The notes below the pieces were generated by a model, which was not told the DNA's origin, did not search any database, and saw only the letters and a program-made list of their open reading frames with translations. From the IMG/VR virus record IMGVR_UViG_3300011217_000001, positions 166,358 through 230,357 of that record: a stretch of 64,000 bases of DNA, one strand, 5' to 3'. The stretch comes from a virus. Taxonomy: Duplodnaviria > Caudoviricetes. Shown one piece after another: positions 34,690-37,597 of this stretch (position 1 is the stretch's first letter; the number at the start of each line of letters is the position of its first letter). Made by a program: the position numbers and the translations under genes.

Positions 34690-34785
34690 GCAAATCTCCT
34701 TTCGTTAAAAAGTACACACACCAGCCTTTATATGAAAAGGCTGCAATTCGTTTTTGACATACCTATCCCCGGAGTGGATGCACAC

Positions 34786-35349
34786 ATGCCCGTTAGCAAC
34801 AAGAATCGCAAGAACACCAATGAACGCAAGCCCTATCGGGCGGGCAAGGATCGTGACCTGACCGCGCGCTCGCTGCGTGAGCTGGAAGACGTCTACTCCG
34901 GTTGTGAAGAACAGCTGGCGCAGGTGCTGCCGGTCTCCCAGCTTCTGCGCGACAAGGCCGCGCTGCAGCAGGTGCCGGTCGAAGATCGCCCCAAGCTGGT
35001 TGAGACCGCACAGGTCGTCAGCAAGGACAGCGGAACCTTCCGTCAGGAGCTGGACAAGATCCGTACCGATCATGTCGAGTTCACCAACTCCGTCACCAGC
35101 CGCGTGCGCAAGACCAGCCGTCCGCGCATGACCGGTGACGAAACGATCCGTGTCATCGAGATCGCTGAGAAGTACAGCGACTGGCAGGGTCGTCACGCCC
35201 GCATCGTCATGCCTAACATCGTCCAGACGCTGGGCTACTACGACGAAGAAACCCGCAACGAGCTGAAGGCCGTCGAGGCCGAAGAAGCCGCCGCTGCGGC
35301 CGCCGCCAGCGCGGCCGAAGAAACCCCGCATCAGGAGAGTGAGCAGTGA
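34786..35349 (+). CDS. Hypothetical helical protein
   Basis: First gene of the plus-strand operon; GTGA overlap with the next gene. Confidence 0.7.
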   Translation: MPVSNKNRKNTNERKPYRAGKDRDLTARSLRELEDVYSGCEEQLAQVLPVSQLLRDKAALQQVPVEDRPKLVETAQVVSKDSGTFRQELDKIRTDHVEFTNSVTSRVRKTSRPRMTGDETIRVIEIAEKYSDWQGRHARIVMPNIVQTLGYYDEETRNELKAVEAEEAAAAAAASAAEETPHQESEQ

Positions 35350-37064
35350 CGCAGGAACCCAACGAGAACACCAACGAAACCCCGGTGACCCCGGCGCCCG
35401 TCGAGCAGGCTGCTCCCGCTGTCGCTGACGATCCGCGTGAGTTCGTGAATACCAACGGCACGCCGGTCGAACCGGCGCAGACCCTGGACGACGTGGCTGC
35501 TGAAGTGGCTGGCGAAAGCCCGCTGGCCGCGCAGGAACGCAAGCTGGCCGCCGACGCCTCGCGTCGTGTTCAGCCCCGCCGCTCCGAGCCGGTCGAACCG
35601 AGCAAGACCGTCACCGTCTCCCGTCCGCTGACCCGTCCGGCCACCACCGATGCCGAGAAGCAGGATCTGGAAAAGGGCTTCCACATCTGGACCCTGAACC
35701 AGACGGCCGAAGAGTTCGCTCCGGTCGGCGAATCCATGAACGAGCTCAACCTGACGGCCACTCCGGAAATCCTCCGCTGGCTGGAAGGTGCTGCTCGTGG
35801 TTCGCGCCTGATGCCCACCGGCAACTACGGTCAGGGCGCACTGGCTCGTGAAGGCTCCGACTGGCAGCAGTCGGTGGACTTCAACGGCGAAGAGATGATG
35901 ATCGGTCGTCCGATCGCCACCGGCGGCAACTCCAGCACCAACGGCCGTGTCTCCGGCGAAGAAGCCAAGAGCCGCCTGAAGGCGCGCCTGGGCGTGGGTT
36001 CGCTGGCTCAGGCTCCGATGTGGCACTCCGGCTTCTGGGTGTCGCTGCAGGCGCCGGGTGAAGGCGAGATGCTGGAACTGGAACAGCAGCTGGGCAACAG
36101 CAAGATCACCCTGGGTCGTGTCTCCGGAGGCTTGGCGTTCTCGGCCAACAACGTCTACCATCAGCTGACCGTGGTGAACTTCGCCATCAGCAAGATGTAC
36201 GACAGCACGCTGAAGGACATCAGCCCGGCATCGGTGAAGTCGAAGATGCTGATCACCGATATCCCGCTGCTCATCCTGCAGCTGGGCCTGATCAACAACC
36301 CCAACGGCTACCCTCTGGCGCGTCCGTGCACCGACCATGCCAAGGAGTGCCAGCACATCGAAGAAGAAGTGCTGAACCTCTCGCGCCTGAAGTTCGTGGA
36401 CCGTCGTTCGCTCAGCCAGAACCAGCGCCGCCTGATGGCTCGTCGTACGCAGAAGATCAACGAAGCAGAGCTGGCCGAGTACGTCAACGGCCACGCTTAC
36501 GCTTCCACGACCCTGTGTGCGATCAGCGACGACGTCTACGTCGAGTTCGCCGTCCCGACGGTGGAGCTGTACGAGAAGTCCTCCTTCGACTGGATCAACT
36601 CCATCGAAGAGCGCGTGGACGCCGCCTTCGGCACCTCGCTGGAAGGGCAGGAACGTGACCAGTACATCCTGGCTCAGTCCCGCATGGCTACCGCGCGCCA
36701 GTACAGCCACTGGGTCAAGCGCATCATCTTCAAGAACGTCGAAGAAGCGACCCCGGGCGTGCTGACCTACGATCCGGCCGTGGACGACGTCGATGACGTG
36801 CGTGAATCGTTCGTGGAGCTGTTGGGTGAAATCTCCAGTCGCCAGGACGTGGTGGAGCGCTTCGTCGAAGGCGTGCAGAAGTTCATCGACTCGGTGACCG
36901 TGGCAATGGTTGCCATCCCGCGTTACACCTGCCGTGTCTGCGGTGCCGAACAGACCGTGGAAAGCTCGCGCCATCCGCGTCTGCTGCCGCTCGACGTGAC
37001 ACGACTTTTTTTCACGCTCCTCGGCCAGCGCACAGCGAAGGCGATTTCCGCCTCAGTGATGTAG
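35346..37064 (+). CDS. phiKZ gp77-like protein (putative baseplate-hub/tail assembly chaperone; four Cys, possible Zn site)
   Basis: PMWHSGFWVSL, PNGYPLARPC...C and YTCRVCG; slippery heptamer near the 3' end. Confidence 0.75.
   Translation: MTQEPNENTNETPVTPAPVEQAAPAVADDPREFVNTNGTPVEPAQTLDDVAAEVAGESPLAAQERKLAADASRRVQPRRSEPVEPSKTVTVSRPLTRPATTDAEKQDLEKGFHIWTLNQTAEEFAPVGESMNELNLTATPEILRWLEGAARGSRLMPTGNYGQGALAREGSDWQQSVDFNGEEMMIGRPIATGGNSSTNGRVSGEEAKSRLKARLGVGSLAQAPMWHSGFWVSLQAPGEGEMLELEQQLGNSKITLGRVSGGLAFSANNVYHQLTVVNFAISKMYDSTLKDISPASVKSKMLITDIPLLILQLGLINNPNGYPLARPCTDHAKECQHIEEEVLNLSRLKFVDRRSLSQNQRRLMARRTQKINEAELAEYVNGHAYASTTLCAISDDVYVEFAVPTVELYEKSSFDWINSIEERVDAAFGTSLEGQERDQYILAQSRMATARQYSHWVKRIIFKNVEEATPGVLTYDPAVDDVDDVRESFVELLGEISSRQDVVERFVEGVQKFIDSVTVAMVAIPRYTCRVCGAEQTVESSRHPRLLPLDVTRLFFTLLGQRTAKAISASVM
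37007..37013 (+). other. Candidate -1 ribosomal frameshift site T TTT TTC
   Basis: In-frame codons are CTT TTT TTC. The -1 frame is open without a stop from 37010 to TAA 37535-37537. Confidence 0.7.
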
Positions 37065-37537
37065 ACCTTGAACAACTCGACCCGAACGGCCATGTAGTCT
37101 TTGATCGTTTCGGGTTGGACAGGGTCGACGAGCTGGGTCCGCACAACCACTTGCTCACTACGGTGAGTGACGAAGTTGATTCCATGTCAGTCCAGTTGAT
37201 GTGCATGGAAGAGTACGATGACTTCTATGGGATCTTTGATCACGACTCTCGTTTCGACGAGGATGGTAAGGATCATCGTCCCATGGCGGCCGTCGCCATG
37301 CATCCCAAAGAGCAATACGGATCCTACGGTCCGCTTGAGCACAAGATGTACCGGTACATGATCAATGGGATCAAGGATCGGTTTGGGGTGACGTGGAGCG
37401 AGTTCCTGCAGCTGTCTCGCAGGGAGACGGAAATCATGTTCAAGGCCAACGCTGATTGGTTGGAGCGGCAAAACAAGCTGCAGGCTGCTGCCGAAGCCGC
37501 AGCACGCGATGCCACCAGCGGAAAGGGTGGCAGGTAA
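37010..37537 (+). CDS. C-terminal (T-like) frameshift extension of the gp77-like protein
   Basis: Track ORF 37115..37537 has only a TTG without a clear SD. FGVTWSEFLQLSRRE resembles the C-terminal motif of tail-assembly chaperones. Confidence 0.65.
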   Translation, partial: FHAPRPAHSEGDFRLSDVDLEQLDPNGHVVFDRFGLDRVDELGPHNHLLTTVSDEVDSMSVQLMCMEEYDDFYGIFDHDSRFDEDGKDHRPMAAVAMHPKEQYGSYGPLEHKMYRYMINGIKDRFGVTWSEFLQLSRRETEIMFKANADWLERQNKLQAAAEAAARDATSGKGGR

Positions 37538-37597
37538 CAAAGAAAAAAAGAAACAGGCATAGCTCCCTCTCCCTTGCGGGAGAGGGAGTATGTCCGT
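37538..37597. terminator. Bidirectional terminator
   Basis: CTCCCTCTCCC-TTGC-GGGAGAGGGAG stem, with an A-run and GGCATA on the left and TATGTC on the right. Confidence 0.7.

Follow-up and report, generated by a model that had tools for sequence, protein, structure and literature searches.

The 64,000-nucleotide stretch of viral DNA analysed here (positions 166,358 to 230,357 of the IMG/VR virus record IMGVR_UViG_3300011217_000001, Duplodnaviria, Caudoviricetes; hereafter 'the window') carries on its plus strand a gene of the phiKZ gp77 family, and the 3' end of this gene together with the open reading frame (ORF) that follows it in the -1 frame is the subject of this report. The nearest named relative of the 230-kb virus record is Xanthomonas phage Xoo-sp14, which exhibits 86% nucleotide identity across the gp77 locus. 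The gp77-like gene (35346-37064) starts with GTG, is preceded at a distance of 8 nucleotides by the Shine-Dalgarno (SD) sequence AGGAG (35333-35337), and terminates with the TAG at 37062-37064, which defines a protein of 572 amino acids and 63.1 kDa. This protein matches phrog_4585 over residues 64-568 (E 1e-98), a tblastn search with it matched PHIKZ077 and 212 other phage records, and family alignments reveal four invariant cysteines (C328, C335, C529 and C532). Judged by profile match and synteny, the 572-residue ORF is a homologue of phiKZ gp77, a core gene of the Chimalliviridae. In the survey of nucleus-forming phages by Prichard et al. 2023 (PMC10299810), gp77 is core gene cg18 (Goslar gp081, phiKZ gp077, RAY gp267) and is listed as 'hypothetical protein' in the supplement. 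Downstream of it, a gene caller would set an ORF of 140 amino acids from the TTG at 37115 to 37537 on the plus strand, which lacks an SD sequence and matches phrog_12109, that is, the PHIKZ076.4 family.

Sixteen codons ahead of its stop, the gp77-like gene reads CGA CTT TTT TTC and contains, in phase with these 0-frame codons, the slippery heptamer T_TTT_TTC of the form X_XXY_YYZ (37007-37013, plus strand). The codons of the heptamer stand out in a gene with a G+C content of 81% at third codon positions: TTT is used for only one of its 17 Phe codons and CTT for only one of its 49 Leu codons, and both of these single occurrences are located in the heptamer. The -1 frame is free of stop codons from 36830 to the TAA at 37535-37537, and the first ATG, GTG or TTG within it is the TTG at 37115. 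Neither there nor at the ATG at 37184 is an SD-like sequence present, unlike at gp77 and many other genes, where AGGAG-type sites are found. Between 37013 and 37064 the plus strand would be read in two frames, so that it would encode the end of the short form in the 0 frame and, in the -1 frame, the 17 codons with which an extension begins; this extension comprises 174 residues plus the TAA (37013-37537) and itself matches phrog_12109. Joining 35346-37013 with 37013-37537 yields a long form of 730 amino acids and 81.4 kDa with the junction ...TRLFF/HAPRPAH.... A preliminary description of this DNA had pointed out the phased heptamer in the 572-residue ORF, the avoidance of its T-ending codons elsewhere in the gene, the two product sizes, the junction peptide and the missing start of the downstream ORF at the TTG lacking an SD sequence; position by position and upon translation, all of this is borne out. 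Its statement that the -1 frame is open through to 37537 likewise holds, while the opening has to be moved from 37010 upstream to 36830. As a separate observation on the end of the short form, the sequence ATGTAG[A/T]C[C/T]TTGA occurs twice (37059-37071 and 37092-37104), 33 nucleotides apart, and is kept in relatives; both copies read ATG-TAG in the 0 frame, which provides the short form with two in-frame TAG stops 11 codons apart. Near-matches at other places in the window resemble common codons read in antisense.

The layout was compared at 41 loci with G+C contents from 43% to 59%, namely the window, 14 named phages (Xoo-sp14, Eowyn, pEa_SNUABM_54, pPa_SNUABM_DT01, PA1C, LucasX, phiKZ, RAY, SPN3US, RP12, FLC8, Yong MS31, BONAISHI and Moabite) and 26 IMG/VR contigs. 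The preliminary description had asked whether slippery heptamer and open -1 frame persist at the 3' ends of gp77 homologues, and they do so at all 41 loci. Without exception, the gp77 homologue is followed by an ORF in the -1 frame and has, 8-37 codons ahead of its 0-frame stop, a run of five to eight T (T5-T8) phased as N_TTT_TTN. No stop codon interrupts the -1 frame from this run, or a point just before it, to 123-169 codons past the 0-frame stop; the +1 frame, in turn, is closed within 1-69 codons, usually fewer than 10. The heptamer is T_TTT_TTN at 37 of the 41 loci; of the other four, PA1C has A_TTT_TTC and three PhiPA3-like contigs have G_TTT_TTT. Its first Phe codon is always TTT, GC-rich genomes included, and where the second Phe is replaced by Leu the codon is TTG, by which the T run is kept. 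The first canonical start codon of the -1 frame lies anywhere from 8 to 85 codons past the slip site (85 in phiKZ), at a position that is not conserved. In the public records examined, the downstream ORF is always listed as a separate gene and none marks a frameshift. The annotated starts of this gene vary: the phiKZ record gives a product of 81 amino acids (L035 2910-3152), the RAY record lets the gene overlap gp267 by 135 nucleotides (L036 2532-3080), and in the pEa_SNUABM_54 record the start is located 129 nucleotides inside the homologous region (L003 3130-3357). Such inconsistency fits an ORF devoid of a real start.

Conservation at the protein level begins upstream of any start codon. 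In the window the -1 frame encodes the motif G-H-V-V-F-D-R-F-G (37088-37114, plus strand) 5' of every canonical start codon of that frame, and in an alignment of 36 distinct extensions the corresponding GH[VI]....FG is conserved 25-35 residues past the run, 5' of most annotated starts of the downstream gene, along with the further blocks E.YD..YGI, P..LV.MH..E and F..LPR. In Moabite the aligned position of the motif falls within the overlap, and termination followed by reinitiation cannot explain the motif there because it precedes the 0-frame stop. When the 175-residue -1-frame translation was searched with phmmer against 1.84 billion representative proteins (E<=1e-3), 201 relatives of the extension were retrieved, and homology extended to query residues 12-35 (nucleotides 37043-37114), that is, 5' of the TTG and into the overlap. 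The best 150 of these 201 are all 100-174 amino acids long, except for one repeat protein of 918 amino acids; many of them match from their own residue 1-5, while the match starts on the query range from 12 to 70, the pattern expected of gene callers that truncate an ORF devoid of a genuine start. A fused single-ORF form was found neither among these best 150 of the 201 matches nor in a word-indexed search of proteins of 322-2000 amino acids, the latter being weak evidence, and the family apparently never resolves the arrangement into either one gene or two properly started genes. We read the ORF at TTG 37115 as a truncated call of the -1 extension rather than as an independent gene.

Constraint at the nucleotide level was assessed by comparing the window with Xoo-sp14 and one IMG/VR contig (L009). 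Variable columns amount to 22% in the gp77 body and drop to 1 of 58 in the overlap (37007-37064), where nucleotide conservation is highest; they number 4 of 50 at 37065-37114, then rise to 38% at 37115-37183 and amount to 28% in the rest of the extension. Counted over codons with conserved amino acid, the share with synonymous change is 0.27 in the gene body, 1/27 in the last 27 0-frame codons, 1/16 in the -1-frame codons at 37064-37114 and 55/110 in the rest of the extension. That 110 of 140 extension codons keep their amino acid, half of them with synonymous changes, indicates on comparative grounds that the extension is under purifying selection. The suppression of synonymous change continues for about 55 nucleotides past the 0-frame stop and ends abruptly at about 37119, near the TTG at 37115; dual coding explains it only as far as 37064. 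The block up to 37119 possibly acts at the RNA or DNA level, whether by stimulating the frameshift from a distance or in some other way, and it qualifies as a candidate stimulator because distal 3' effects on frameshifting are on record for T7 gene 10 and insertion sequence (IS) elements (PMC5009743). A search for further close relatives that would allow a synonymous-site or covariation test returned none in two metagenome scans, and a viral scan gave two contigs that were already included. Separately, we note that a block of 139 nucleotides (36981-37119) is near-identical in four relatives whose divergence outside it is about 14%.

The signal and its layout are present throughout the family, and the extension is conserved as a protein 5' of any start codon. 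The gp77-family gene probably harbours, in our reading of these sequences, a programmed -1 ribosomal frameshift giving rise to products of 63 and 81 kDa. Translation would initiate at the GTG at 35346, and most ribosomes would end at the TAG at 37062 to release the 572-residue short form. At U_UUU_UUC (37007-37013), a fraction of the ribosomes would slip back by one base while the P and A sites are both occupied by tRNA-Phe, and then read the -1 frame to the TAA at 37535, thereby producing the 730-residue long form composed of gp77 residues 1-556 and the 174-residue helical extension. We infer that it is the ribosome rather than RNA polymerase that slips, and the frequency of slipping is a matter of the same reasoning; a fixed ratio of short to long form would presumably be the purpose. 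Sites of the form X_XXY_YYZ and the Phe codon in the A site of T7 gene 10 are established -1 sites (PMC5009743), and tandem slippage of tRNA-Phe on the ribosome is favoured because the heptamer has this form, because T7 gene 10 sets a precedent for UUC in the A site, and because some lineages carry T5 or T6 only. Frameshifting as such is a well-known mechanism, and what is described here is a new instance of it in a gene family that is core to a much-studied group of phages; a literature search retrieved no paper on frameshifting in phiKZ-like phages, in gp77 or in 076.4.

Several points weigh against a programmed ribosomal frameshift. No consistent stimulatory element emerged: the 90 nucleotides 3' of the heptamer fold no better than shuffled sequences (z +0.86), and the consensus folds of two clades reveal little covariation (-0.3 kcal/mol in one and +0.71 in the other). 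The literature likewise yielded no peptide, ribosome-profiling or reporter data for gp77 or its relatives. Encoding FF(T/I)L in the 0 frame already biases the gene towards T-rich codons at this place, and conservation of the run is in part a protein constraint. Finally, contigs spanning the site show identity at the DNA level only, which is not informative on RNA. As for individual structures, a hairpin of about 9-10 bp at 37079-37116 (z -2.2 relative to shuffled sequences), formed by the codons for P-N-G with those for R-F-G, begins 66 nucleotides from the slip site; its core stem is invariant in four close relatives and for this reason yields no covariation, and the variable codon at 37076-37078 breaks a longer version of it. 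In the PhiPA3-like contigs L031, L032, L033 (3852-3877), a hairpin located 58-83 nucleotides past the run exhibits compensatory changes at one or two pairs. One pair, which joins the third position of an Arg codon to a codon for Ser or Asn, changes between C-G, U-A and G-C among the three contigs, a switch of serine from AGC to UCC being among the changes. Changes of this kind hint at a conserved 3' structure in that clade.

Other explanations of the layout have to be weighed against ribosomal frameshifting. The same 730-residue fusion would result if phage or host RNA polymerase added one U in the U7 run, and RNA polymerases are known to slip at such runs with this very consequence (PMC5009743). 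This would agree with the dominance of T7-T8 homopolymer runs in the family and with the fact that no ribosomal stimulator was found. It would not account well for PA1C, the PhiPA3-like loci and the Vibrio phages, in which the run is only T5 or T6 and thus short for polymerase slippage, nor for the invariable phasing of the run as two Phe codons, which only decoding needs (the conserved FF motif, however, also imposes this phase); moreover, contigs across the run are without indels, although contigs cannot show rare RNA forms. On balance, we deem transcriptional slippage unlikely. It could also be that every public record examined is right to annotate two independent genes, the second initiating at TTG 37115, at ATG 37184 or at a non-canonical codon. 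The opening of the -1 frame upstream would then be incidental, as may well happen in GC-rich genomes, which have long accidental open frames, and in the window this frame is indeed open for 61 codons before the run. The frame is also open in AT-rich relatives, however, with 85 codons in phiKZ that lack any start, and its offset is -1 at 41 of 41 loci. When one further considers that no SD sequence precedes 37115 or 37184, that no start position is conserved, and that both the conserved motif and the phmmer homology reach 5' of the first start codon, two separately initiated genes appear quite improbable.

Homopolymer runs are error-prone in several sequencing chemistries, and one might suspect that the real gene is a single 730-residue ORF with T8, or else that the extension is the pseudogene remnant of a decaying gene. 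The offset, however, is constant with T5-T8 in independent assemblies made over two decades by different methods, four further contigs (from air, wastewater and soil) are without an indel at the run, no single-ORF form occurs among the best 150 of the 201 matches or in the search of longer proteins, and purifying selection on the extension speaks against decay; error or decay can for practical purposes be dismissed. There remains the identity of the protein itself, which the preliminary description had taken for a tail assembly chaperone of the lambda G/GT type displaced into an unusual position. What recommends this is the shared logic, in that a -1 slip near the 3' end would yield a short and an extended form of a probably non-virion protein, the Goslar homologue gp081 not being among the modelled virion proteins. 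Yet neither Pfam nor PHROG provides a match to a tail-assembly-chaperone family, the protein is, with its 572 amino acids, about four times larger than lambda gpG (about 140 amino acids), no tail genes are annotated beside it in Xoo-sp14, phiKZ or RAY, genes for RNA polymerase and helicase, and not a tape measure gene, being the neighbours annotated in relatives, and fold matches point instead to hub assembly proteins resembling T4 gp26/gp51. Neither is the gene displaced, since gp78-gp77-gp76.4 represents the conserved synteny of the family. A true lambda-type pair is, then, very improbable, while an assembly-chaperone pair of short and long forms following a G/GT-like logic is a reasonable functional analogy.

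It is instructive to set the proposed ribosomal frameshift beside those of known systems. A conserved -1 frameshift in tail assembly chaperone genes is described for lambda gpG/gpGT (Levin 1993; Xu, Hendrix and Duda 2004, 2013), here as reviewed in PMC5009743. In both cases a gene for an assembly protein (for gp77, a presumed one) has the slip only a few codons ahead of its stop, by which two products arise or, for gp77, would arise, a short one and one extended at its C-terminus, presumably in a fixed ratio; in both, the signal is conserved across the whole phage group and usually missed by annotation. The differences are that gp77 belongs to another family with another fold, is about four times larger and has no annotated tail genes beside it, and that its slippery site is a U run, that of lambda being G_GGA_AAG. 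For T7 gene 10A/10B, the same review, citing Condron, Atkins and Gesteland 1991, reports a -1 shift at G_GUU_UUC. T7 gene 10 and gp77 both have the slippery site close to their 3' end, with a UUC in the A site, read by tRNA-Phe, that shifts or in gp77 would shift to UUU, and the longer protein is the minor product in T7 and would be so in gp77. The T7 gene 10 frameshift is also reportedly affected by a distant 3' element, according to that source (PMC5009743), which might be a precedent for the constrained block up to 37119. Unlike gp77, which is probably not a virion protein and would gain a conserved domain of 174 residues, 10B is a capsid protein whose extension is short. In E. coli dnaX (tau/gamma), an upstream SD-like element and a downstream hairpin drive a -1 slip at A_AAA_AAG that truncates the protein. 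The likeness to gp77 consists in bacterial-type tandem -1 slippage giving two forms of one protein; in gp77, by contrast, the slip would extend the protein, and no such stimulators were found.

Sequence searches provide few clues to the function of either product. Searches of Pfam and of PDB sequences offered no explanation for gp77 or its extension, with no tail-assembly-chaperone family in Pfam at E<=1, and the only PHROG matches at E<=0.01 are phrog_4585, phrog_8054 and phrog_12109, all of unknown function. An AlphaFold model of gp77 residues 111-572 was obtained with a mean predicted local distance difference test score (pLDDT) of 75.8 and a predicted template modelling score (pTM) of 0.79. 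Among solved structures it found no counterpart, neither with Foldseek against the PDB (best E 0.23) nor with VIA-align against 48,161 chains, where only generic helical-hairpin matches were returned (Z<=6.2). In BFVD, however, the model matches, beyond its orthologues, about 15 baseplate-hub models of 225-290 amino acids (E 1e-4 to 1e-2; template modelling score by target 0.45-0.58) bearing the names baseplate hub assembly chaperone, baseplate hub subunit or 'baseplate hub assembly protein, T4-like'; both sides of this comparison are predicted structures, and no structure of the T4 gp26/gp51 family is among the PDB matches. In an ESM Atlas neighbour cluster, 14% of the members carry PF12322 (T4_baseplate; NCBI name 'gp26 family baseplate hub assembly chaperone'), the family to which T4 gp26 (E 9e-64) and T4 gp51 (E 4e-52) belong, these two being, by their sequences, paralogues. 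Some GenBank records label the gp77 gene 'baseplate hub assembly protein'.

The comparison with T4 gp26/gp51, which the preliminary description had put forward, agrees with these repeated matches among predicted folds, while sequence tests remain below significance. PF12322, with its gathering score of 24.5 bits, does not match the gp77-like protein of the window at E<=1, and a search of the full 230-kb genome gave no match to it either; three of 21 gp77 relatives match it at E values of at least 0.024, below significance. An hhalign comparison of gp77 with gp26 reaches a non-significant probability of 9-20% on a stretch common to both, A-[VI]-P..C..CG. When the gp77 profile was aligned with a 17-member gp26 profile, the probabilities were 9% and 5%, and an hmmsearch of 36 gp77 proteins with the gp26 hidden Markov model gave no significant match. 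Gp77 shares with gp26/gp51 the C-terminal pattern A-[VI]-P..C..CG ... FF.L and two Cys pairs, and T4 gene 26 likewise has two annotated nested products, 26 and 26'. On the other hand, gp77 is 2-3 times longer, T4 gp26 (L043 7803-8429, minus strand) ends with ...GLKEFFELL with FF encoded by TTC TTT and thus without a slippery run, and 26' represents the C-terminal 95 amino acids in the same frame. A 'gp26/gp51-like assembly factor' is, on the strength of the models, the best functional lead for gp77, as distinct from established membership in that family, and the absence of Goslar gp081 from the modelled virion fits this lead. Because its predicted fold resembles T4 gp26/gp51, the gp77 pair may act in baseplate-hub assembly.

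The extension is predicted to form a small helical domain with a final helix of 36 residues (pLDDT 77.4). Fold searches returned generic matches of coiled-coil or basic helix-loop-helix-zipper type to this last helix only (Z<=5.8), and in BFVD the extension matches its own orthologues only. Its terminal helix of about 36 residues suggests that the extension may add a module for partner binding or oligomerisation. It is tempting to speculate further that it serves in sorting or partner switching, such that a fixed minority of a gp26/gp51-like chaperone would be sent to another partner or compartment, that the slip rate would be set by a distal 3' RNA element reaching to 37119, about 105 nucleotides past the slip site, and that all nucleus-forming phages would need recoding for their baseplate hub, although as a whole we consider this scenario rather unlikely.

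Should the proposed frameshift be real, every genome record of the family would mis-annotate the locus, the long form being missing and the 'gp76.4-like' gene being a truncated call, and results from proteomics, knock-downs or transposon screens would be misinterpreted wherever the two ORFs are handled as distinct genes. The slip would, moreover, represent the first case of recoding linked to a hub assembly factor resembling gp26/gp51, and the logic of a 'fixed-ratio chaperone pair', which lambda G/GT exemplifies for the tail tube, would then apply to a further stage of assembly. Gp77 is a core gene defining the nucleus-forming jumbo phages, and the slip would offer a handle on its role.

The neighbours of gp77 are a gp78-like gene and a convergent gene encoding 435 amino acids, with RNA polymerase beta and helicase genes present in annotated relatives. 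The gp78-like ORF (34732-35349, plus strand, 205 amino acids) is transcribed in the same direction, overlaps the gp77 start with its stop, and corresponds in position to PHIKZ078 in phiKZ and PA1C. Two minus-strand ORFs at 35331-36974 (547 amino acids) and 36923-37150 (75 amino acids) were rejected as antisense artefacts of a gene rich in G+C at third codon positions, and their amino acid composition is aberrant; the phrog_4585 match sits on the plus-strand ORF, the antisense ORFs not having been put through the family search. Long antisense ORFs over gp77 could mislead gene callers. A 13-nucleotide repeat, ATGTAGWCYTTGA, was likewise rejected as a regulatory motif: it has 12 matches in the window versus 2.5 expected, and these are mostly the antisense of common codons in minus-strand genes. 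Regarding the T run in environmental assemblies (public runs X1, X3, X11 and X16), a contig of 232,020 bases from an air metagenome is about 98% identical over 36700-37400 and keeps T7. Contigs about 87% identical over the same region, which likewise keep T7, occur in soil libraries labelled metatranscriptomic, where RNA and carried-over DNA are indistinguishable from the contigs. Finally, a G+C-rich hairpin of 11 bp is located between the convergent genes (37563-37588), and its pairing is kept in Xoo-sp14 by a compensatory change from T-A to C-G; a T-rich stretch follows it on the minus strand. The hairpin probably terminates transcription in both directions and would mark the end of the gp78-gp77 unit.

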